Assembly (NCBI GenBank): GCA_038065835.1
Contig: JBBTQB010000029.1
Span: 1-38,487, forward strand
From: Patescibacteria group bacterium
GTDB lineage: Bacteria > Patescibacteriota > Minisyncoccia > Minisyncoccales > Staskawiczbacteraceae
Reading direction: 5' to 3'
Length of the DNA stretch: 38,487 nt
Of the stretch, positions 1,529 to 36,684 are shown piece by piece. How positions within the stretch are numbered: position 1 is the stretch's first letter; every line of letters starts with the position of its first letter. The notes under the pieces were generated by a model that saw only the letters and a program-made list of their open reading frames with translations, was not told where the DNA came from and did no database searches. Both the position numbers and the translations under genes were made by a program.

Positions 1529-3169
1529 ATGACAATTCCTAAAGAAATCAAAGCTGTTATCTCAAAATTGCAAAAGGCTGGGTTTCAGGCCTACATTGTC
1601 GGAGGATGTGTAAGAGATTTTTTGCTTGAAACAGAACCCAAAGACTGGGACGTTGCCACTAATGCCAAGCCAGAAGAAATACAGAAAGTTTTTCCAAATA
1701 ACTTTTACGAAAATAGGTTTTTAACGGTCACAGTAAAAACTGGCCCCGTTAGAAACAGCCCGCCCCAAAGGCCCTCTGGGCGCGCTAGCGCGGGCGGTGT
1801 TTCTAACGGGGCTGGCAGCGGTATTAATGAGGTTGAAGTTACAACGTATAGGCTAGAAGCCAAATACTCCGATAAAAGGCATCCAGATGAGATAAGATTT
1901 GCAAAAACTCTAGATGAGGATTTAGAAAGGAGAGACTTTACAGTCAATGCTATGGCGATAAGTGTTCTAAATGATAGAAATGTTCTAGATGTTGTAAATG
2001 GAAAAAATCAAGCGGAGCGATTGAACAAGCGAGCAAGAGCGAGCGATAGAACAGTTAAAACATATACAACAGAAGTTGTGGATTTGTTTGATGGACAGAA
2101 GGATTTGAAAAATAAAATAATAAGAACAGTTGGCAATCCAGAAGAAAGATTTAACGAGGATGCTTTGAGAATGCTAAGGGCTGTTAGGCTAGCCTCAACA
2201 CTGGGTTTTTCCGCTAAAGGCGGACCAGCCTTAGGCTGGAAAATAGAACCAAAAACCGCAGAGGCGATTAAAAAAAACAGCACTTGGTTAGAGACTATTT
2301 CAAAAGAAAGAATCAGAGATGAATTTTTGAAGATTGTTATGTCAGACAATGCATCTGATGGCATAGAGTTGCTCCGTGAACTAGAGCTTTTAAAGTTCAT
2401 TCTGCCAGAGCTTTTAGAAAACTATGGAGTTGGCCAAAATAAACATCACATTTACGACTGCTATACCCATGCCTTAAAAGCTCTAGCGTATACTGCTAAG
2501 AAAAAGTTTAATGTGCACGTGAGGTTAGCTGCTCTTTTCCATGATATTGCAAAACCCAGAGTAAAAGCAGGAGAGGGAAAAGATTCAACATTTTACAACC
2601 ACGAAGTTGTTGGGGCAAAAATGACTTTTGAAATTTTAAACAGATTGAAGTTTTCTAAGAAGGATGTTGAAAAAATAACAAAGCTTGTAAGATATCACTT
2701 GTTTTATTACAATGTTGATGAAGTTTCAGAGTCATCGGTAAGGAGGCTTGTAAAGAATGTGGGGACGGAAAACATAGAAGAGCTTTTACAAGTAAGGCAA
2801 GCTGACAGGATTGGATCTGGCGTTCCCAAAGCCGAGCCCTATAAGTTACGTCACTTAAAATATGTAATAGATAAGGTTTCCCAAGACCCGATTTCAGCCA
2901 AAATGCTAAAAGCTAACGGAAAGGATGTAATGGATATTTTAAATATTCAGCCGGGACCTAAAGTTGGCCAGATATTGAGCGTATTGCTGGGATATGTATT
3001 AGAGGATCCAAAAAAGAATAGTAAAGAGTTCTTGGAAAAAGAAATCAAAAAACTAGGAAAACTTTCTGAAAAAGAATTAGAGAAACTTTCTGTAAAATCA
3101 AAAGAAGAAAGAATGAAAATGGAAACTAAAAAAGATGAAATGACAAAGCAAAAGTATTGGGTTACCTAA
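1529..3169 (+). CDS. cca: CCA-adding tRNA nucleotidyltransferase with C-terminal HD domain
   Basis: N-terminal GGCVRDFLL...DWDVAT polymerase-beta head motif. HD region ...AALFHDIAKP.... Lys/Glu-rich tail. It is needed because many tRNAs here lack an encoded CCA. Confidence 0.85.
   Translation: MTIPKEIKAVISKLQKAGFQAYIVGGCVRDFLLETEPKDWDVATNAKPEEIQKVFPNNFYENRFLTVTVKTGPVRNSPPQRPSGRASAGGVSNGAGSGINEVEVTTYRLEAKYSDKRHPDEIRFAKTLDEDLERRDFTVNAMAISVLNDRNVLDVVNGKNQAERLNKRARASDRTVKTYTTEVVDLFDGQKDLKNKIIRTVGNPEERFNEDALRMLRAVRLASTLGFSAKGGPALGWKIEPKTAEAIKKNSTWLETISKERIRDEFLKIVMSDNASDGIELLRELELLKFILPELLENYGVGQNKHHIYDCYTHALKALAYTAKKKFNVHVRLAALFHDIAKPRVKAGEGKDSTFYNHEVVGAKMTFEILNRLKFSKKDVEKITKLVRYHLFYYNVDEVSESSVRRLVKNVGTENIEELLQVRQADRIGSGVPKAEPYKLRHLKYVIDKVSQDPISAKMLKANGKDVMDILNIQPGPKVGQILSVLLGYVLEDPKKNSKEFLEKEIKKLGKLSEKELEKLSVKSKEERMKMETKKDEMTKQKYWVT
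1743..1812. repeat. Family-D GC-rich palindrome inserted in frame in cca
   Basis: Arms GCCCCGTTAGAAACAGCCCGC (1743-1763) and GCGGGCGGTGTTTCTAACGGGGC (1790-1812). It encodes about GPVRNSPPQRPSGRASAGGVSNGAG. The termini match those of the 5227-5545 element. Confidence 0.7.
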
Positions 3170-3243
3170 TCATTTTTACGAAGATAAAAATGGAATTTTC
3201 AATTTTCAATTTTAAATCAATTTTTAATTCTTTAATTCTAAAA

Positions 3244-3315
3244 CGGGGATTAGTGTAGCGGCAACACGCACCGTTCGGGACGGTGAAACGGTGGGTCCAA
3301 CTCCCACATCCCCGA
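3244..3315 (+). tRNA. tRNA-Pro(CGG), no encoded CCA
   Basis: Acceptor CGGGGAT/ATCCCCG, anticodon arm CACCG-TTCGGGA-CGGTG (G37). The T-loop, read as TCCAACT, is atypical. Confidence 0.8.
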
Positions 3316-3321
3316 CAAAAA

Positions 3322-3531
3322 GGACCTGTAGTTAAATGGTAGAACAGCGCATTCGTCCCGATGGTGAAATTATTTTCACCATACGAGGATCCGCGATGGT
3401 TTTGGTGGGCCCGTGGTCTAACGGCATGACATCACATTCGCATTGTGGAAGTGGGAGTTCAATTCTCCCCGGGTCCACCAAAACTATCGGACATTGCGCA
3501 AATGGCGGTTCGATTCCGCCTAGGTCCACCA
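3322..3531 (+). tRNA. tRNA (Thr(CGU)-like) interrupted in the anticodon loop by a ~137-nt insert, CCA encoded
   Basis: The 5' part GGACCTG-TA-GTTAAATGGTAGAAC-A-GCGCA-TTCGT (3322-3356) and the 3' part AT-TGCGC-AAAT-GGCGG-TTCGATT-CCGCC-TAGGTCC-ACCA (3494-3531) form a cloverleaf. The anticodon call depends on the exact junction (CGT, or CGC/CAC). Confidence 0.55.
3407..3480 (+). tRNA. tRNA-Ala(CGC), nested copy, CCA encoded
   Basis: Acceptor GGGCCCG/CGGGTCC with G3:U70, anticodon arm TCACA-TTCGCAT-TGTGG, T-arm GGGAG-TTCAATT-CTCCC. Confidence 0.85.
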
Positions 3532-3595
3532 AGATTAAACTTTCAGGAATTTTGTCGATTGATTGTATTTTAACAGAGAAATGAACGGGCGACCA

Positions 3596-3635
3596 GCAAA
3601 AAATTTCCTGGGGCCAGGGGCAGGAAATTTTTTGC
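3596..3635. repeat. Family-C hairpin, copy 1
   Basis: Perfect 15-bp stem GCAAAAAATTTCCTG / CAGGAAATTTTTTGC with GC-rich loop GGGCCAGGGG. Outer ACGGG/CCCGT pairing extends the stem. Confidence 0.8.
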
Positions 3636-3690
3636 CCGTACGCCGATGGAAAAAACTTGACTTACGTATGAGTTTTGCTATGATTAACTC

Positions 3691-3975
3691 ATGAAAAAGA
3701 CAATGTTAGAATTTAGTCTTCCAGTATCTATTTTGCGGGAAGGTAAAAAATATGTCGCCTATACACCAGCGCTGGATTTGTCTACTTCTGGTAATACATT
3801 TGAGCAAGCAAAAAAAAGATTCGATGAAATGGTTTATCTTTTTTTTGAAGAAATTTTTAAAAAAGGAACTGCAAAAGAGGTTTTAATGGAATTGGGATGG
3901 CAGAAAATTCATGAAAAATGGAATCCACCAATTGTGATTTCCAATGAGTCGCAGATGGTTAAATTGTCTTACTAG
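3691..3975 (+). CDS. hicB: HicB-like antitoxin (UPF0150 fold)
   Basis: 94 aa. The N-terminus ...FSLPVSILREGKKYVAYTPALDLSTSGNTFEQAKKRFDEMV... is typical of HicB-like domains. The gene is immediately followed by a HicA-like frame. Confidence 0.7.
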   Translation: MKKTMLEFSLPVSILREGKKYVAYTPALDLSTSGNTFEQAKKRFDEMVYLFFEEIFKKGTAKEVLMELGWQKIHEKWNPPIVISNESQMVKLSY

Positions 3976-4827: not shown

Positions 4828-4911
4828 CAACACAAAGAAGCCTGAGATTGCATCAAGGGCTTTCTTTTTTGTAAAACAATTAAAACACACAACTTTTTTT
4901 AGTGGCGAGAA

Positions 4912-4949
4912 GGCAAAAATTTTCTGGCCTGGGAGAGAAAATTTTTGCC
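4912..4949. repeat. Family-C hairpin, copy 2
   Basis: Stem GGCAAAAATTTTCT / AGAAAATTTTTGCC with loop GGCCTGGGAG. Orientation and architecture match 3596-3635. Confidence 0.8.
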
Positions 4950-4980
4950 CGCTGGCCGTTCGCCGCTCTGCCCCCGTTTT

Positions 4981-5016
4981 CCGCGCGCCCCGCGGGGCGC
5001 GCGGTGTCCATTTTTC
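4981..5016 (+). terminator. GC-rich hairpin with T-run
   Basis: CCGCGCGCC-CCGCGG-GGCGCGCGG followed by TGTCCATTTTTCG. Confidence 0.45.
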
Positions 5017-5125
5017 GTTTGTTTTTCAAAATCTTTCTTGCTAAAATACAATTAATCCGCTTCGGGGTTTTGCTCGTAGTAAGTTCTAACTTTTTTCAAT
5101 AAAGACCACCTCGTTAGAAGTCTGG

Positions 5126-5189
5126 ACAAAATGCTAATTACGAGACCCGGTCTCGTCAACGAGACCGGGTCTCGTAATTAGCATTTTGT
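5126..5189. repeat. Perfect 29-bp inverted repeat with a 6-nt loop, containing the family-B core ACGAGACCCGGTCTCGT
   Basis: ACAAAATGCTAATTACGAGACCCGGTCTC - GTCAAC - GAGACCGGGTCTCGTAATTAGCATTTTGT. Confidence 0.85.
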
Positions 5190-5226
5190 TGTATGATGCT
5201 TTCTATTTATCGATCTAATAGTTTAA

Positions 5227-5545
5227 CCCCGTAGAATTTAAATTACATCCGCCAAGGGCCGCGGGTCTCGTACTAAATCAGCTTTAGAAGCCCAAAAATG
5301 ATATGATTTCAAGGAGTAACGAGGAGACTTATCAGGCGGTCAGCGATAAGTCGACGAAGTTGCGACACAGAAATCAGCCATTTTTGGGCTCCCCCGAAGG
5401 GCGGGTGAATTCAGGCAAGATTCATCGTTGCTTGTCGCTCACAATGCGATTGCATTAGGCTCGCTCCTCGCGCCTTGAATCTTGCCTGAATTCTGACCGC
5501 TAAATTGATTCGGTACGAGACCCGCGGCCCAAGCTTCTAACGGGG
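5227..5545. mobile_element. ~320-nt multi-helix element (MITE-like, or an unknown structured RNA) with family-D termini
   Basis: Nested perfect helices: 5227-5236/5535-5545, 5256-5273/5513-5530 (18 bp), 5289-5300/5379-5390 (12 bp), 5407-5424/5476-5493 (18 bp), plus small hairpins. Confidence 0.5.
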
Positions 5546-5550
5546 TCCAT

Positions 5551-5586
5551 AAAAAAGCCGCTTTTTGTTCTGGGTTAAAAAGCGGC
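5551..5586 (-). terminator. Rho-independent terminator of the 5599-6573 gene
   Basis: On the minus strand: GCCGCTTTTT-loop-AAAAAGCGGC followed by TTTTTT. Confidence 0.7.
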
Positions 5587-5598
5587 AAGTGGGATAGA

Positions 5599-6573
5599 TT
5601 ATCTCACTATCGCATAGTTTGTCACGATGCGCACACGATAATTTCCCATTGATACGTTGTTCCAAGGACTTGGCACGATGTGGAGGAATAATCTGCCTTC
5701 ATCTGTAGGAATGCCATCATAGCGCTCTCCAATGATGAATTTATTTCCCTGTTCTCCAATTCGGCCTAGAAGAACTCCAGCCATGAAAGTTCCTCCTTTG
5801 CCAGCAGTAGTATAGCCCTTTGGGGTAGTCATGTACTGACCAGCTCCCTGCGGCCAAAGGTCTACTTGTCCATTAGCTGTTGCAATCAGTCTCATATTTT
5901 TTCTAATGATGATGCCGGTATCGAGCCAATCGCTCGGATTGACATGTTTTGCAGCGTCAACATTAAACTCCCTTTGGTGTTTGTTGCCTCCGCAAATTGT
6001 TCGGAGGCAAGAGAGCTTGAGACTGAGATCGCCCAGTTGACTAGAGCGCACTTTAAGTAAAGTGCCCTTTAATTGTCCTCGCGCAGTGAACTCCGCTGTT
6101 CTAACAGTATCTTGCTCATCTGCAGAAAGAAGCTCAGGTGGCGCTCTTTTTTTAATGTTCTTGATAATTTGTGTTACGCGTTTTGCGCGCTCAAGATCAT
6201 CCTTGCACTCAACCTTTTTTAAGAGCGGATACACAAAGCATTCAATATCTTCTTCTTGGAGATATTTTGTAGCTTCTTCCCGTTCCTTGTAAACACTACT
6301 GCCAAGGCTAGCGATTGAGCTCTCAATTTTTTCTCTGAGGTTAGGAGGATAGTGAATCCCAAACTCAATTTGGCAGACATCCCCCAGAGGGATTTTGAGC
6401 TCGCCATACTTGGTGGAAAGCGTAAGATCTGCTTCTAAAATAGTAACCTTCAAAAAGTCGCCGCCCCTTAGTTTAACATCAAAGCAAGGAAGCTTCTTTG
6501 GTTGAGAAGTTTCCCCTACAGATGTAGAGGTTGCTAAAAGCAGACAAACCACCATTCCAAACATGTACTTCAT
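5599..6573 (-). CDS. Secreted protein with a C-terminal PA-IL/LecA-like lectin-type domain (tentative)
   Basis: Signal peptide MKYMFGMVVCLLLATSTSVG. The C-terminus ...GQVDLWPQGAGQYMTTPKGYTTAGKGGTFMAGVLLGRIGEQGNKFIIGERYDG...GRLFLHIVPSPWNNVSMGNYRVRI resembles LecA-like domains from memory. AGGAG RBS and its own terminator. GC-richer than the backbone. Confidence 0.6.
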   Translation of the reverse strand: MKYMFGMVVCLLLATSTSVGETSQPKKLPCFDVKLRGGDFLKVTILEADLTLSTKYGELKIPLGDVCQIEFGIHYPPNLREKIESSIASLGSSVYKEREEATKYLQEEDIECFVYPLLKKVECKDDLERAKRVTQIIKNIKKRAPPELLSADEQDTVRTAEFTARGQLKGTLLKVRSSQLGDLSLKLSCLRTICGGNKHQREFNVDAAKHVNPSDWLDTGIIIRKNMRLIATANGQVDLWPQGAGQYMTTPKGYTTAGKGGTFMAGVLLGRIGEQGNKFIIGERYDGIPTDEGRLFLHIVPSPWNNVSMGNYRVRIVTNYAIVR

Positions 6574-8467: not shown

Positions 8468-8554
8468 AAAACCCAGTACATTGTATCGGTTTGCCTGGGG
8501 CTCTAGCTGTGTTAGCTCAGAGTGAGAGGTAAACCAACAACGGAGGAATTGGCT

Positions 8555-9319
8555 ATGAAAAGCCAACCTGTCTCTTGGATCGGCGTCTTGATGTCTCTCG
8601 TTCAACTTCTGGTGAAGGAGCTTAAGAAGTTGGGTGGCGGAGACGATGACGTTCGCTGGCTTGTAACTTCAGAGGGAGAGGATCTCTTGAAGGAGTTTGC
8701 CGCAACCATTCGGAAACGGCGAACATGCGCTTCTGGTCCCGCACAACAGCTGGAGGGGTGGAAGCGTTTCTACAAGAAGCACTTCAATCTCACCTTGGAT
8801 TTGTCCCAAGTGAAGATTCCCGATCACCAAGAGGGCTTCGACCGCCTTCTCATCGTGGCCAAGGGTCTGACCCGCAACCAAGCCTACAAGGCTTGCGAGA
8901 AGCAGTTTACCTGCTGGAGCTACCCAGAGGACTTGGACGGTGCCATCAAGCCCGATGAGCGTGACCCCAAAAATGGCACGTACGCCATTTGGGTCCGAGA
9001 TCGTATTGAGGCGGACGAGGAGAACGCGGGCCAGTCCTTCAACCAGCGTCGTAAGCAAAAATGCCAGGACGAAAACGTTTTGGAGCGGATGCTCCATGAA
9101 CTCAAGTACTTTGATGAGACAGGCAAGCACCTGGACATCAAAAACGTGACGCTCACCTCTTCGCTCGTTTCTGACGGCGCTGCGGTTGATGCCCACTGGG
9201 GTGACGGCAGGTTCTTCATCGACTGGTGCTTCCTCGACGATCGCCGTGACCGTCTTCGTTCCCGTTCCGTGGTTTCTGTGTCTGCGGAGCCGAGCGGAAG
9301 CGAGGCGAAGCAGGCATAA
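8555..9319 (+). CDS. GC-rich orphan protein (hypothetical)
   Basis: The track ORF is 8522-9319. ATG 8555 is preceded by GGAGGAATTGGCT. It is clearly GC-richer than its neighbours and has its own promoter and terminator. No family recognised. Confidence 0.6.
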   Translation: MKSQPVSWIGVLMSLVQLLVKELKKLGGGDDDVRWLVTSEGEDLLKEFAATIRKRRTCASGPAQQLEGWKRFYKKHFNLTLDLSQVKIPDHQEGFDRLLIVAKGLTRNQAYKACEKQFTCWSYPEDLDGAIKPDERDPKNGTYAIWVRDRIEADEENAGQSFNQRRKQKCQDENVLERMLHELKYFDETGKHLDIKNVTLTSSLVSDGAAVDAHWGDGRFFIDWCFLDDRRDRLRSRSVVSVSAEPSGSEAKQA

Positions 9320-9370
9320 GAGTTGCTTGTTGAAGCGACGCCGAAGGCGTAAGCTGAAACAAGCAATGAA

Positions 9371-10102: not shown

Positions 10103-10177
10103 AAAGACTCTAAAGAGTGCAGGATTCGAACTATCATCAATCTGATGATAGTTCGAATCCTGCACTCTAATGTCTTT
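10103..10177. repeat. Complete copy of the 26-nt-arm palindrome (tRNA T-arm-like sequence)
   Basis: AGAGTGCAGGATTCGAACTATCATCA-ATC-TGATGATAGTTCGAATCCTGCACTCT, extended by AAAGAC/GTCTTT. Confidence 0.9.
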
Positions 10178-15123: not shown

Positions 15124-15151
15124 ATTTAATCAATCAAAAATGTGTGGGGCA
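15124..15151 (+). repeat. 29-nt direct repeat, right copy
   Basis: See 14411-14439. Confidence 0.75.
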
Positions 15152-15220
15152 CCTGCCCGCATTGCTACGCCAGCCCGACAGCCTAGCAGTCTTGGCGGCG
15201 GGCAAAGCGTTGCAGGCGGG
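15152..15220 (+). repeat. Family-A hairpin element, long (69-nt) intergenic copy
   Basis: CCTGCCCGC-ATTGCTACGCC...AAAGCGTT-GCAGGCGGG with an internal GCCCG...CGGGC sub-hairpin. Confidence 0.8.
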
Positions 15221-15237
15221 TGACATTTAAACATATT

Positions 15238-15570
15238 ATGGACTTAGTAAATAAAAAGATTCTTTCTCATAAGGAGATGGTAAAACTAAATGAGGAAGAA
15301 GTCAAAGATTATCTTTCCCAATTAAAAGATGGGTGGGAGTACCAACGAGACCCGGCCTCGTTGGTAAGAAAGGAGTTTAAGTTTGAGGACTTCGCGAAGA
15401 CGATGGAGTTTGTAAATAAAGTTGCAGATATTGCAGAAAAAGAAGGGCATCACCCTGACATCGCCATTCACTACAATAAAGTGGATGTCACCCTTTGGAG
15501 CCACTTTATAAACGGCCTATCAATCAACGACTTTATCATCGCCGCTAAGATCGATAATATAATTTTATAA
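15238..15570 (+). CDS. Pterin-4-alpha-carbinolamine dehydratase (PCD/DCoH family)
   Basis: ...FKFEDFAKTMEFVNKVADIAEKEGHHPDIAIHYNKVDVTLWSH... is the PCD signature. The GTG start in the track (15220) lies inside the repeat, so ATG 15238 is preferred. Confidence 0.8.
   Translation: MDLVNKKILSHKEMVKLNEEEVKDYLSQLKDGWEYQRDPASLVRKEFKFEDFAKTMEFVNKVADIAEKEGHHPDIAIHYNKVDVTLWSHFINGLSINDFIIAAKIDNIIL
15341..15365 (+). repeat. Family-B hairpin inside the PCD gene
   Basis: ACCAACGAG-ACCCGGC-CTCGTTGGT. It is nearly identical to the reverse complement of 22712-22734. Confidence 0.75.
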
Positions 15571-15626
15571 AAATAATTTAGTTTTAGTGAGGTCAGACCT
15601 GCTGTATTCTTAAATCCTAAATCCTA

Positions 15627-15686
15627 CCTGCCCGCCAAAGCCCCTGCCTGTGCGTATCCGCACGCAGACAGGTTGGCGCAGGCGGG
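15627..15686 (+). repeat. Family-A hairpin element, long (60-nt) intergenic copy
   Basis: CCTGCCCGC-CAAAGCCCCTGCCTGTGCGTATCCGCACGCAGACAGGTTGGC-GCAGGCGGG. Confidence 0.8.
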
Positions 15687-15708
15687 AATCTTAAATCTTA
15701 TCGTTAGT

Positions 15709-20085: not shown

Positions 20086-20134
20086 CTCACTCAAACCAAA
20101 AACTGCCCATGGGCAGTTTTTGGTTTGAGTGAGC
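20086..20134. terminator. 23-bp perfect palindrome (candidate bidirectional terminator) abutting tRNA-Gly
   Basis: CTCACTCAAACCAAAAACTGCCC-ATG-GGGCAGTTTTTGGTTTGAGTGAG. Confidence 0.5.
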
Positions 20135-22102: not shown

Positions 22103-22822
22103 TTAGATTTTAAAATTATTTAGTATTTTCTTGAGATCTTCTGGTAAATCCGAATTGAATTCTTTCACGCTACCGTTCGGCAATCTTATCTTTAAATATG
22201 ATGAGTGTAAAAACTGCCTATTCAACCCTTTTGGAACAGGAGAGTCTTTAAATCCATACATCTTATCCCCGGCAATTGGATGATGGATATAAGCTAAATG
22301 ACATCTTATTTGGTGCTTCCTGCCTGTTTTTGGCTTAACTTCTAATAAAGAATATCTATCAAACCTCTCTAAAACTTTATACTCTGTAATCGCCTCTCTT
22401 TTCCCCGCGAAAGCCGGGCTTTTGCGGGGAAAGGCTTTTTGCTTGCGGGGGTCGGCAGGAGATCTTCCAATCAATGTTTCAATTCTCCCTTCTTCTTCTT
22501 TCACTATACCGTTGGCAAGAGCCATGTACTTCTTCTCCACCTCTCTACTTTTAAACTGTTTTTGTAAAAAAAGCAAGGATTCGTTGTTTTTTGCGACTAA
22601 AAGTATGCCCGATGTATCTTTATCTAGTCTATGAACAATCCCATGCCTTGTCGCTTCTCCAACACTCTTTAATTCTGGCTTTTGCTCTAAAAGATAATCT
22701 ATTAATGTCTTACCAACGAGGCTGGGTCTCGTTGATCTCGTTGATTCTAGAAAAACCACTACTCCCGCCGGCTTATCAACTACCAAAACATCATTATCTT
22801 CATAAATTACTTTAAAATCCAT
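22103..22822 (-). CDS. RluA-family 23S rRNA pseudouridine synthase (RluD-like, lacking an S4 domain)
   Basis: ...VVDKPAG...HRLDKDTSGILLVAKN... catalytic motif, and ...GRKHQIRCHLA.... Confidence 0.85.
   Translation of the reverse strand: MDFKVIYEDNDVLVVDKPAGVVVFLESTRSTRPSLVGKTLIDYLLEQKPELKSVGEATRHGIVHRLDKDTSGILLVAKNNESLLFLQKQFKSREVEKKYMALANGIVKEEEGRIETLIGRSPADPRKQKAFPRKSPAFAGKREAITEYKVLERFDRYSLLEVKPKTGRKHQIRCHLAYIHHPIAGDKMYGFKDSPVPKGLNRQFLHSSYLKIRLPNGSVKEFNSDLPEDLKKILNNFKI
22402..22459 (-). repeat. GC-rich repeat patch in frame in the pseudouridine synthase gene
   Basis: The minus strand reads CCTGCCGAC-CCCCGCAAGCAAAAAGCC-TTTCCCCGCAAAAGCCC-GGCTTTCGCGGGGA, which is two direct copies and one inverted copy of CCCCGCAAAAGCC. 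It encodes about SPADPRKQKAFPRKSPAFAGK. Confidence 0.6.
22712..22734 (-). repeat. Family-B hairpin in frame in the pseudouridine synthase gene
   Basis: The minus strand CAACGAGACCCAGCCTCGTTGGT matches 15343-15365 at 22 of 23 positions. It is preceded by a 9-nt duplication (TCAACGAGA x2) and encodes STRSTRPSLVGK. Confidence 0.75.
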
Positions 22823-27548: not shown

Positions 27549-27650
27549 TAAAATAGTACCTCACATTACACTTCATGCGATTTTGCTCATACTTGTGGGT
27601 AAAATCGTGTGAAGTGTTTCGAGATTTCCCATTTCCGAAAGGATAAGTCC

Positions 27651-28283
27651 ATGTTGTACATCACGAACGCCCTATCTCAGATCACGGACATTTTCGTGTC
27701 CACCAAGGATTGGGATACGTCCACGCCCGATACCGTGAAGGGGTTCTTCACCAAGTACAACGGCGTTGGTGTCTTACCCTTGACCAAGCAAAACACGGGG
27801 GCATCACAGAATCAGGCCCCGCAGACCGAGCAGAAGCCTACTTACGAGAAGGAGGAGCCGGAGGTCATCGTCGAGAGTGAGCCCAACTGCGGGCTCCTGG
27901 AGTACTTCAATAGTCTCTGTGACCACGAGTTCAGGATTTACGCCCTGTACCGCGAGGTCAAAGAGAGATGGGTGAAGATCCGTATCCAGGCCTGCCCCGA
28001 CTACGACATCGGATGGGACAAGAAGCGTCCCTTCGATGAGATGAATGAGGTTGCCGGCACCATCTACAGCATGGCTGGCTATAGGCTGGACGTGAAGCAT
28101 TTCACGTACAAGAAGCCCGGCCGCACGCCCGACGAAAAGCGATCCATCTTCGTAAAGGCCGACCAGTTGAACTGGTTAGTTGGCAAAGACGGGAAGCCCC
28201 TCCTCGTCGGCAAACCGCCGAGGCCCAAGAAGGCACGGAACCAGCTGGTTATCACGGACGATGGGGAATTTAAAGTGGCGTAG
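27651..28283 (+). CDS. GC-rich orphan protein (hypothetical)
   Basis: The track ORF is 27609-28283. ATG 27651 is preceded by AAAGGATAAGTCC. It is clearly GC-richer than ftsH and valS. No family recognised. Confidence 0.6.
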
Positions 28284-28305
28284 GGTACGCTACCACGCAA
28301 AACAA

Positions 28306-35900: not shown

Positions 35901-36684
35901 GGTAGCCAGGGGTAGGGGGTTGATGAATTTTTTGGAAATCTCAGCTGAGGAGAAAGTTTTGTCACTAGTGCCTCTGGAAAAATTAGAAGTAGGGCAAGAA
36001 AGAAACGAAAAATATTTAATGATGGTTACCAAAAACGGGCGGATTAAAAAAACATCCTTGGAAGAGTTTAAGAACGTAAGAAAATCAGGGATAATAGCTA
36101 TAAAATTAGAAAAAGGAGACTTGCTGAAAAAAGTTGTTAAAACCAGTGGCCAAGATGACATAATTTTGGCAACAAAAAATGGTTTATCCATTAGATTTAA
36201 AGAAAAGGACATAAGACCGATGGGCAGAGCAACAGCAGGGGTTAGAGGCATAAGGCTTAAGAAAGGACCTGCCCGCAGTGCTACAGGCGTTGCAGGCGGG
36301 GATGAAGTCATTGGAATGGACGTCATCTCGGCAAATGGCAAAGAGCAAATGGCAAATGGTAAGAAAGTAAAGCAGTACTTTTTGGTTGTAATGGAAAATG
36401 GATATGGTAAAAGAACAGAAATTTCCCAGTATAAAGTTCAAGGAAGAGGAGGTTCTGGGATAAAAACTGCAAATATTACTTCAAAGACTGGCAGAATAGT
36501 TATGTCCTGCATTTTAGATGACTCAACAGAAAACGAAGACTTGATAGTAATATCTCAAAAAGGCCAAGTTATAAGGACGGTTACAAAATCAATATCTTTG
36601 CTTGGTAGAGCAACGCAAGGAGTTAGAATAATGAGGTTGGACCAGGGCGATAAAGTTGCTTCTGGAGCTTGTTTTAAGGAGTAA
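32965..36684 (+). CDS. gyrA: DNA gyrase subunit A, intein-containing
   Basis: ...RALPDVRDGLKPVHRRIL..., YHPHGD, ...AAQRYTEARL (active-site Tyr), and C-terminal beta-pinwheel repeats. Confidence 0.92.
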   Translation: MAKEEPEKIQAIGQVKKREIVQELKESYIDYAMSVIVARALPDVRDGLKPVHRRILFAMLEEGLRHNAKLRKSATVVGAVLGRYHPHGDIAVYDSMVRMAQDFNMRYPLVQGQGNFGCFTKDIKVKLTDGRDLTFEELVKEYHQGKKNFAFTVDSNGKIVIAEIKHPRKTIENAPIIKITLDNGETIKCTLNHKFMLKNGTCKEAQYLTEGESLMPLYTKLSERENDINLGGYELVFQPNSNSWYFTHMLADEWNIENNVYEKSQGRIRHHIDFNKLNNNPNNIKRIGWKEHWQIHYTIASRRHSEDALYREKIAKGRKDFWANAENRKKHSERMTIRNIKNWKKKDYRENMRAFLSEINKKYLAEHPERIEEIRKTASKTMKRLWQIPEYKSLFHKKIVASNKRRVTNLTGRSKFLRICKYLSNNNLEINKENYEKIRVDIFGGACFTTWDLGIGKYFKDNKDSVLFSINQNHKVIKKEFLNKNEDVYDLTVEVTHNFALSCGIFVHNSNDGDSPAAQRYTEARLSSIGEAMLADIEKDTVNFADNYDGTRKEPTVLPSPLPQLLLNGSLGIAVGMATNIPPHNLTELIDALIYLLDYPKSETSDLFQFIQGPDFPTGGVIYDQKEIISAYSQGKGSIIMRGKAEIIEKEKDGSEQIVISELPYQVLKSSLVENMASLVSEKKVEGIRDIKDLSDRQGMAIIIDIKKGFDPQRVLNRLYKFTNLQKTFHLNLLALVDGIQPEILSISDVLKYFIVHRTEVVTRRTKFDLERAKERAHILEGLMVALKKIDAVIALIKKSRDREDAKNNLIKKFRLTERQVIAILEMKLQTLAGLERKKIEDELKEILEKIKEFTAILKSPEKLKNIIKKELQELKEKFGDKRKTKVIKQKLGEISEIDLVPLEDTMVTLTTGGYIKRINPATYKIQKRGGKGIMGMKTMQDDIVEHFLFASTHDNLLFFTNSGKVFQTQVYEIPEGTRVARGRGLMNFLEISAEEKVLSLVPLEKLEVGQERNEKYLMMVTKNGRIKKTSLEEFKNVRKSGIIAIKLEKGDLLKKVVKTSGQDDIILATKNGLSIRFKEKDIRPMGRATAGVRGIRLKKGPARSATGVAGGDEVIGMDVISANGKEQMANGKKVKQYFLVVMENGYGKRTEISQYKVQGRGGSGIKTANITSKTGRIVMSCILDDSTENEDLIVISQKGQVIRTVTKSISLLGRATQGVRIMRLDQGDKVASGACFKE
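33316..34491 (+). mobile_element. GyrA intein (392 aa) with an HNH-type endonuclease region
   Basis: The host sequence QGQGNFG|...|SNDGDSPAAQRYTEARL is interrupted. Blocks: CFTKDIKV (Cys1), TLNH, RHHIDFNKLNNNPNNI (HNH-like), VYDLTVE...GIFVHN followed by Ser+1. The codon phase was checked. Confidence 0.85.
36268..36300 (+). repeat. Family-A hairpin element, 33 nt, in frame in gyrA
   Basis: CCTGCCCGC-AGTGCTACAGGCGTT-GCAGGCGGG, encoding PARSATGVAGG in the C-terminal domain. Confidence 0.75.

Follow-up and report, generated by a model that had tools for sequence, protein, structure and literature searches.

A hairpin repeat in two unrelated Patescibacteria genes and its probable link to a RAYT-like transposase clade

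The 38,487-nucleotide contig JBBTQB010000029.1 of a Patescibacteria group bacterium (assembly GCA_038065835.1), here called the window, carries one short palindrome inside two unrelated genes, a pterin-4a-carbinolamine dehydratase (PCD) gene and a pseudouridine synthase gene of the RluA/RluD type (Table 1). Based on ortholog alignments, a survey of the palindrome in other assemblies and structural models of the proteins concerned, we consider it quite likely that the palindrome is a hairpin repeat of the REP (repetitive extragenic palindromic) type, a selfish element of a recognized kind, rather than a peptide motif, and that its cognate enzymes are one clade of Y1/HUH transposases in Patescibacteria that resemble REP-associated tyrosine transposases (RAYTs).

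One palindrome in the loops of two unrelated proteins

Re-extracted from the window, CAACGAGACCCGGCCTCGTTGGT at 15343-15365 (+) and CAACGAGACCCAGCCTCGTTGGT at 22712-22734 (-) agree at 22/23 positions, with 0 matches in 100 dinucleotide-preserving shuffles. The initial annotation, made from the letters alone, had described one palindrome translated in two frames in two unrelated genes. That description is borne out, and the match persisted when the coordinates were re-extracted computationally. In its full extent the PCD copy is TACCAACGAGAC-CCG-GCCTCGTTGGTA, with 12-nt arms, one A.C mismatch and a CCG centre, and as single-stranded DNA it folds at -9.5 kcal/mol (z = -5). The PCD gene reads it on the + strand as TAC CAA CGA GAC CCG GCC TCG TTG GTA (YQRDPASLV), and the synthase gene reads its copy on the - strand as TCA ACG AGA CCC AGC CTC GTT GGT (STRPSLVG), one frame off the PCD reading; in both genes the sense strand holds the A..C form of the hairpin. 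These are the two full copies in the 38-kb window. The duplicated left arm of the synthase copy (STR-STR), also proposed in the initial annotation, was located as two occurrences of TCAACGAGA on the - strand, at 22727-22735 and 22736-22744 in + strand coordinates. Partial arm copies likewise lie beside family members in loci L004, L005, L011, L023 and L115.

Table 1. Host genes, hairpin copies and related palindromic features of the window.
Feature	Position	Strand	Basis
Host gene 1, pterin-4a-carbinolamine dehydratase (PCD), intact across the palindrome	15238-15570	+	Pfam Pterin_4a 8.6e-32, residues 16-108
Family-B REP-like hairpin, 27-nt imperfect palindrome, read YQRDPASLV in the PCD gene	15340-15366	+	ortholog comparison, fold
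Host gene 2, RluA/RluD-type pseudouridine synthase, intact across the palindrome	22103-22822	-	Pfam PseudoU_synth_2 1e-33
Hairpin copy, 25 nt, ATCAACGAGACCCAGCCTCGTTGGT on the - strand, one G>A in the centre, read STRPSLVG in the RluA-type gene	22712-22736	-	
Partial extra copy of the left arm, TCAACGAGA, encoding the first STR of STR-STR	22736-22744	-	
REPIN-like doublet: head CACCTCGTTAGAAGTCTGG, then a palindrome with inverted units ACGAGACCCGGTCTCGT / ACGAGACCGGGTCTCGT	5107-5195	+	
Left arm of the 18-bp outer helix, GGGCCGCGGGTCTCGTAC, containing half-core GGGTCTCG	5256-5273	+	
Right arm of the 18-bp outer helix, GTACGAGACCCGCGGCCC, containing half-core CGAGACCC	5513-5530	+	

In an alignment of 120 PCD orthologs (P0241-P0360), the common form of the segment is W-EFLETNKIT-KEF, whereas the window clade has W-EYQRDPASLVR-KEF. 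The window protein shows a net gain of 2 aa over its closest palindrome-free orthologs and only +1/+2 aa relative to the solved homologues 3jst and 2ebb, in line with the earlier remark that PCD has no obvious gain in length. Relatives differ in the presence and form of the hairpin. The syntenic PCD gene of L199 (70% identical) is without it. In L200, a perfect 27-nt variant with GGA/TCC arms forms a clean insertion of 9 codons at this site. The hairpin centre is flipped in L201 (CGG) compared with L197 (CCG).

Locus L197, from the metagenome-assembled genome (MAG) CAYIDV01, has PCD DNA that is 80% identical to the window, with the same gene order, junctions and loop length. Its hairpin centre is GTCCGAC rather than the ACCCGGC of the window, so that one C-G pair has become T-A by a compensatory change and the A.C mismatch has been repaired. 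The transposase gene of CAYIDV01 (L317) carries CAACGAGGTCCGACCTCGTTG upstream and inside, and this is exactly the hairpin variant of that MAG's PCD gene. To judge from these alignments, the shared junctions argue for a single ancestral insertion, and the matching centre may mean that the resident L197 copy was later converted to the genome's current hairpin type; independent re-insertion at the identical point is the alternative. The net gain of 2 aa and the variant at the same junctions broadly support the initial preference for replacement or conversion over simple insertion in PCD. A count of insertion events from a neighbour-joining PCD tree built without the loop was set aside: the carriers scatter in it, but its 96 columns are too weak.

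In the synthase, the segment between FPEG and KTLID is hypervariable among 120 RluA orthologs (P0001-P0120), which range from the minimal form FPEGQTTEKTLID to hairpin-bearing versions in either orientation; the window has FLESTRSTRPSLVGKTLID. The L111 ortholog (71% identity) has the hairpin at this place but in reverse orientation, L115 has a decayed copy, likewise reversed, with an arm duplication, and L112 (73% identity) is without a hairpin. In the RluA model the hairpin-encoded residues 28-36 form a loop with a predicted local distance difference test (pLDDT) score <50. Compared with solved RluD (1prz) and with 11wx, this loop has 6 additional residues, which matches the gain of about 6 residues over E. 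coli RluD that the initial annotation had proposed. The ortholog alignments which that annotation had suggested as a check contain palindrome-free members for both genes. In PCD and RluA alike, the frame is kept, the frame used has no stop, and the loops vary in length among orthologs. The window copies are probably translated as 8-9 extra or replaced residues.

The same synthase gene contains a second, unrelated palindrome at 22400-22432 (TTTCCCCGCGAAAGCC / GGCTTTTGCGGGGAAA), which encodes approximately PRKSPAFAGK at a site where solved homologues show a 5-6-residue gap. In other lineages the same RluA and PCD loops hold many other short inserts, such as AKSSAGKAN, SSQAPRNDETKRQ, LRQQASDGQA, PPSHKASEGR and LVSPKPNGEGG, and these look like translations of other GC-rich repeat families.

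A repeat family and its probable partner transposase

A scan of species representatives (one genome per species, a set to which the window's contig does not belong) with the query AACGAGACCCNGCCTCGTT returned 30 stretches. Of these, 23 lie in low-GC Patescibacteria, that is, members of the candidate phyla radiation (CPR), or in other low-GC MAGs; their labels include Saccharibacteria, Paceibacterota and Staskawiczbacteria, and several MAGs have 3-7 copies. The other seven are single matches in genomes of 53-70% GC, and we take them as chance. Scanning metagenome contigs added 101 further stretches. In a position matrix of 134 non-redundant copies, a 21-nt core, C-AACGAGACCCGGCCTCGTT-G, is essentially invariant. 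Partial A-T / A-T pairing is visible at -3, -2 and +2, +3, and no conservation extends further out. Because conservation ends at +/-3 nt around the core, we define the hairpin unit as 25-27 nt. Strand asymmetry is kept across the copies, with A...C on one strand and G...T on the other.

A census of about 1.08 Mb of fetched low-GC DNA contains 138 non-redundant copies; it is biased, because its loci were gathered by an exact 19-mer, and it uses an open reading frame (ORF) length of at least 150 aa as no more than a proxy for coding. Thirty-eight are at transposase genes (13 of them internal, all co-oriented with the gene), 47 are in no ORF, 33 are in ORFs of at least 150 aa, and 20 are ambiguous, being in ORFs of 80-149 aa. 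Away from transposase genes, at least 33/100 copies are thus inside long ORFs. Among others, the host ORFs encode DegT aminotransferases, TsaD, a GT1 glycosyltransferase, a Mur ligase, GatB, GrpE, a transaldolase and a methylase, together with LepA-, aminoacyl-tRNA-synthetase- and ComEC-like proteins recognized by sequence inspection. The same loop is occupied in different lineages in TsaD (3), GatB (2) and LepA (2), and one ORF in L219 has an inverted hairpin doublet in frame.

This recurrence of the core in many low-GC Patescibacteria assemblies answers the census suggested in the initial annotation, and the 21 invariant bases are found in intergenic DNA and in 5/6 reading frames, in agreement with its view that the similarity is at the DNA level and is not peptide convergence. 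Orthologs with the same nucleotides were found only within Patescibacteria/CPR lineages, in several of which the associated transposase was also found, and not in unrelated phyla, where by the annotation's own criterion a counter-example would have lain; the hairpin in CPR orthologs fits a mobile or converted element. The probability of a chance match or an assembly artefact is negligible, given that no shuffle reproduced the match and that independent assemblies of many studies and samples contain the hairpin within intact genes. One contig does speak for artefacts: L259 (11,444 nt), a candidate for two inverted transposase copies, is its own reverse complement, and we rejected it as an assembly artefact.

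The 33 coding copies are read as TRPGLV (22), QRDPASL (8), QRGRVSL (2), NEAGSRW (1) and NETRPR (0). Selection for a peptide or an mRNA hairpin module in both proteins or transcripts would account for such a bias (the frames other than the first two make up 3 of 33) and for the filling of the same loops in several lineages, as in TsaD, GatB and LepA. We nevertheless hold this explanation to be most unlikely: the window copies give different peptides, 47/138 copies are in no ORF, orthologs function without the hairpin, and the encoded residues form a low-confidence loop. Purifying selection alone also predicts the frame bias, because the consensus flank TTGA puts a stop in two frames, NETRPR and NEAGSR, and closes them; the bias fits selection on the product. 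As for the core itself, we considered whether the lack of a stop in any frame could be a matter of design. The 21-nt core does read through in all six frames, but so do 44% of random 21-mers with matching composition, and the idea was dropped.

A RAYT-like Y1 transposase, which the initial annotation had missed, explains the hairpin family. In L013, three hairpin copies surround a 235-aa ORF (3237-3944) that scores 27.8 bits against Pfam Y1_Tnp (cut-off 23). Its 120 homologs form a CPR family with an invariant HUH motif, H86-F87-H88, and invariant Y145, N149 and P150 (Tyr-x3-Asn-Pro). The AlphaFold model of the transposase has a mean pLDDT of 85, and its top fold match in the PDB is 4er8_A (E 2.3e-5), the E. 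coli REP-associated tyrosine transposase bound to a REP hairpin; the IS608, ISDra2 and IS200 transposases come next.

The hairpin adjoins the transposase gene in every locus or lineage of the Family-B clade that was examined. In L013, L202/203, L204/205 and L206-210 it lies 6-80 nt upstream, inside the coding sequence (CDS) at about +178, and at or just after the stop. L021, which ends within the gene, has the upstream and internal copies. The internal copy encodes FW-QRDPASL, its peptide is kept across the clade as QRDPAS, QRGPTS or QRGPSS, and its site in the transposase model is a low-confidence loop. Among the matches listed are 80 distant CPR homologs (45% identity or less), and almost all of these have their own lineage-specific palindrome about 30-60 nt upstream and just past the stop; in about 20 of the 80, the palindrome is also inside the gene, at +150 to +185, in the same protein loop. 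A second, 39%-identical paralog in L206 (15495-16297) bears a palindrome of its own, ACAGAGACCCGCTCTCTGT, at all three places: upstream, inside (+216) and directly past the stop. The hairpin variants of the MAGs CAYIDV01 and CAYHAF01 each match the transposase gene of the same MAG. Ten contigs, drawn from different samples, show the Family-B transposase P0178 amid the same type IV pilus genes. No duplicated identical transposase gene was found among the loci examined, where the only second copies seen, in contigs and loci rather than complete genomes, are 39%-identical paralogs.

Several features would be equally at home if the hairpins were spread or homogenized without a transposase, by template switching at quasi-palindromes or by short-patch gene conversion, with the gene-linked copies as ordinary members of the family: the orientation flip at the same site between the window and L111, the flipped centres of L197 (CCG) and L201 (CGG), the common partial arm duplications, the conversion-like tracking of hairpin variants, and the window itself, which is without a transposase. 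We regard such spread as improbable. The three-position layout recurs with many unrelated palindromes across the 80 listed loci, and in some 20-kb loci, L202 and L204, there are no hairpin copies besides those at the transposase gene. A partnership of protein and hairpin predicts such specificity; random conversion does not.

A further alternative is that the motif is a selected recognition sequence, for instance one for DNA uptake or for binding by a dimeric protein, tolerated in genes as uptake sequences are in Neisseria or Haemophilus. Such a sequence might vary as little as the core does across divergent CPR lineages and, like the core, occur in several reading frames and in inverted pairs; the position of one transposase locus within a type IV pilus gene cluster also fits. 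DNA uptake sequences, on the other hand, occur at about one per kb, and the density here is low: genomes have a few copies each, and the 38-kb window has 2 full ones. The conserved A.C strand asymmetry is more than a symmetric duplex site would require, and the palindromes themselves differ widely between lineages, each going with its own transposase. We therefore judge a recognition sequence of this kind to be very unlikely.

Inverted doublets of the unit, similar to REPINs or BIMEs, were also found. The 8-mer half-core CGAGACCC occurs 6 times in the window vs 0.21 expected (5141+, 5167-, 5263-, 5516+, 15346+ and 22724-), and its sites confirm two further claims of the initial annotation, namely that the core is in the palindrome at 5126-5189 and in the 18-bp helix of the element at 5227-5545. 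The former is a 64-nt perfect palindrome made of two inverted hairpin units, and the doublet that includes it (5107-5195) folds as DNA at -37.1 kcal/mol. It belongs to a family of about 95 nt that consists of a head, CACC(C/T)CGTTAGAAGTCTGG, then GCAAAATGCTAA, the two inverted hairpin units and the complementary AGCATTTTGC. Homologs of the doublet are present in 7 other contigs at 76-89% identity, and there the second unit is exact Family B.

Comparison with REP/RAYT systems and a possible mechanism

In described RAYT systems, a Y1/HUH enzyme is encoded by a single fixed gene flanked by its cognate palindromes, which are of one type per enzyme and which can form REPINs, or REP doublets forming hairpins (PMC3337134, PMC8266576, PMC3333891). 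The CPR hairpin system has the core attributes of RAYT/REP, that is, the fold and motifs, the flanking palindromes, the one-to-one pairing and the doublets. Its likeness to the REP/REPIN-RAYT systems of E. coli, Pseudomonas and Stenotrophomonas (TnpA-REP) extends over: (i) a Y1/HUH gene flanked by short imperfect palindromes; (ii) a palindrome type of its own for each transposase variant; (iii) dispersed copies, with inverted doublets that form long hairpins; (iv) a stem mismatch and strand asymmetry that are kept; (v) a gene apparently at a fixed, syntenic place; and (vi) the RAYT-REP complex 4er8 as the best fold match. The differences lie in the hairpin, which is without a GTAG or CGTC tag; in the CPR protein, which has about 234 aa compared with 165 aa for the 4er8 chain and scores under the NCBIfam equivalog cut-off; in copy number, with few copies per genome here and hundreds there; in location, about one third of the dispersed CPR copies being inside long ORFs whereas REPs are mainly extragenic; in the existence of a whole clade with a hairpin inside the transposase CDS at a fixed loop; and in the host, Patescibacteria.

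Several of these points weigh against assignment to the REP/RAYT class, and we list them with others that have the same bearing. Two classical REP features are lacking, the tag and the high-copy, mainly extragenic spread: no GTAG/CGTC or other guide tetranucleotide is conserved 5' of the hairpin in the 134-copy matrix, exact copies number at most 7 per MAG, and the share of copies inside genes comes from the biased census described above. The L013 ORF scores 39.9 bits against NCBIfam REP_Tyr_transpos, under the cut-off of 80, and a sequence search of the PDB with the clade profile matched no chain. The main caveat is that the pairing of hairpin and enzyme for the window's own organism rests on relatives, as no transposase homolog was found in the 38.5-kb window; likewise, no transposase was seen in the 8-kb pieces around the 6 exact copies of MAG CBDVAW01. 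Finally, we infer mobility of the hairpin with no near-identical pair of genomes that differ by one copy.

The insertion sequences of the IS200/IS605 group (IS608, ISDra2) have the same transposase fold and subterminal one-strand hairpins at both gene ends. Unlike them, the CPR system shows no multiple identical gene copies, its gene apparently keeps one syntenic place across samples, and only the 25-27 nt hairpin is dispersed. Intragenic REPs in Proteobacteria and in-frame Rickettsia palindromic elements (RPE) have already been described, and in-frame palindromes are therefore not new in kind: in those cases, as here, they add residues and the gene is kept intact (PMC3733652). The present unit differs from the proteobacterial REPs, with their GTAG/CGTC tags, in being untagged, 25-27 nt long and linked to a CPR transposase clade. 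RPE are longer, roughly 100-150 bp, and to our knowledge have no partner transposase. Small dispersed repeats of 21-27 nt, reportedly described by Elhai et al. in 2008 from heterocyst-forming cyanobacteria, are said to form hairpins, to occur in genes, spacers and other repeats, and to leave reading frames undisrupted. We know of no transposase associated with them, and they differ from the CPR hairpin in phylum and in sequence. No paper in the literature searched connects Patescibacteria with RAYT or REPIN, and these CPR lineages go unmentioned in a phylogenomic survey of Y1 enzymes. What appears to be new is the host, the regular third copy inside the transposase gene and the variant-matched copy in an orthologous housekeeping loop.

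Following the biochemistry of IS608, ISDra2 and E. coli TnpA-REP (PMC8266576, PMC3333891), a transposase of this kind would bind the folded hairpin on one single DNA strand, with the mismatch setting the choice of strand. It would cut beside the hairpin and join it to another single-stranded site, or swap it with a resident copy, and this strand transfer would create new copies or overwrite old ones. In the present data, the conserved A.C asymmetry is the one observation that points to strand-specific binding and cleavage. Copies in genes would persist only if they were in frame, free of stops in the frame used, and placed in tolerant loops. Unrelated proteins would contain different peptides because only such copies of one DNA element persist, and the frames in PCD and RluA would differ because copies are placed at the DNA level regardless of frame, with selection keeping the tolerable ones. 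The orientation flips and variant switches at orthologous junctions suggest, as far as sequence comparison goes, that resident copies are, over time, brought back into line with the hairpin type current in the genome.

The hairpin inside the transposase CDS might itself be no accident. Different clades have it in the same loop, and its sequence never departs from that of the flanking and dispersed copies; on this basis it could be a master or reference copy, or an autoregulatory site, through which the enzyme and its recognition sequence co-evolve while copies in loops are overwritten to the current type. We put this forward tentatively and consider it doubtful. If true, it would amount to sequence-directed concerted evolution of 25-nt modules in coding regions.

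Placement of a transposase-linked hairpin repeat would explain why identical GC-rich palindromes occur in different frames of AT-rich Patescibacteria genes, and it would extend REP/RAYT-type systems to a large, little-studied bacterial radiation. The 8-9 residues added or replaced in loops of core enzymes (PCD, RluA, LepA, TsaD, GatB, GrpE) are relevant to annotation, to alignment-based phylogeny and to the reading of 'lineage-specific insertions' in CPR proteins. The REP field has yet to settle what keeps REP families and their enzymes in step, and the internal transposase hairpin, together with the variant-matched copy in the PCD loop, offers a tractable way into this question.

Other palindromic and compositional features of the window

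The element at 5227-5545 is a 320-nt array of nested long helices with a minimum free energy z of about -11 on both strands. Both CCCCGT(T)AGAA and the half-core CGAGACCC lie in its outer stems, and partial homologs only were seen, in L278, L291 and L228. It may be either a structured RNA or a set of nested palindromic repeats. An Rfam scan at gathering thresholds returned only 11 tRNAs in the window, with no family covering the hairpins or the 320-nt element, and under permissive settings the region 4850-5700 produced nothing beyond sub-threshold microRNA and snoRNA noise.

A different GC-rich palindrome of about 72 nt (1741-1814; arms GCCCCGTTAGAAACA / TGTTTCTAACGGGGC) lies in frame in the ORF of a CCA-adding enzyme (1529-3169) and encodes GPVRNSPPQRPSGRASAGGVSNGAGS; a similar peptide, 'PVRNSPP...ISNEV', occurs in the PCD ortholog P0341. 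The sequence CCCCGTTAGAA is found 4 times in the window vs 0.54 expected, and it also heads the doublet family. GC-rich islands at 1174-1308, 15140-15227, 15619-15692 and 36260-36309 share inverted motifs of the type CCTGCCCGC...GCAGGCGGG, and two of them flank the PCD gene. To go by these motifs, the islands look like another repeat family.

GC skew in the window tracks gene orientation and flips at about 20 kb and about 32 kb, so that replication-strand and transcription-strand bias are inseparable. G+C content is clearly higher at 8500-9320 and 27600-28300 than in the rest; the two regions overlap two ORFs of possibly foreign origin, 8522-9319 and 27609-28283. Two perfect long palindromes lie at 10114-10168 and 20086-20133. 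One has 26-nt arms (AGAGTGCAGGATTCGAACTATCATCA), and the same sequence adjoins a doublet in L278; the other has 24-nt arms and abuts a tRNA-Gly gene.

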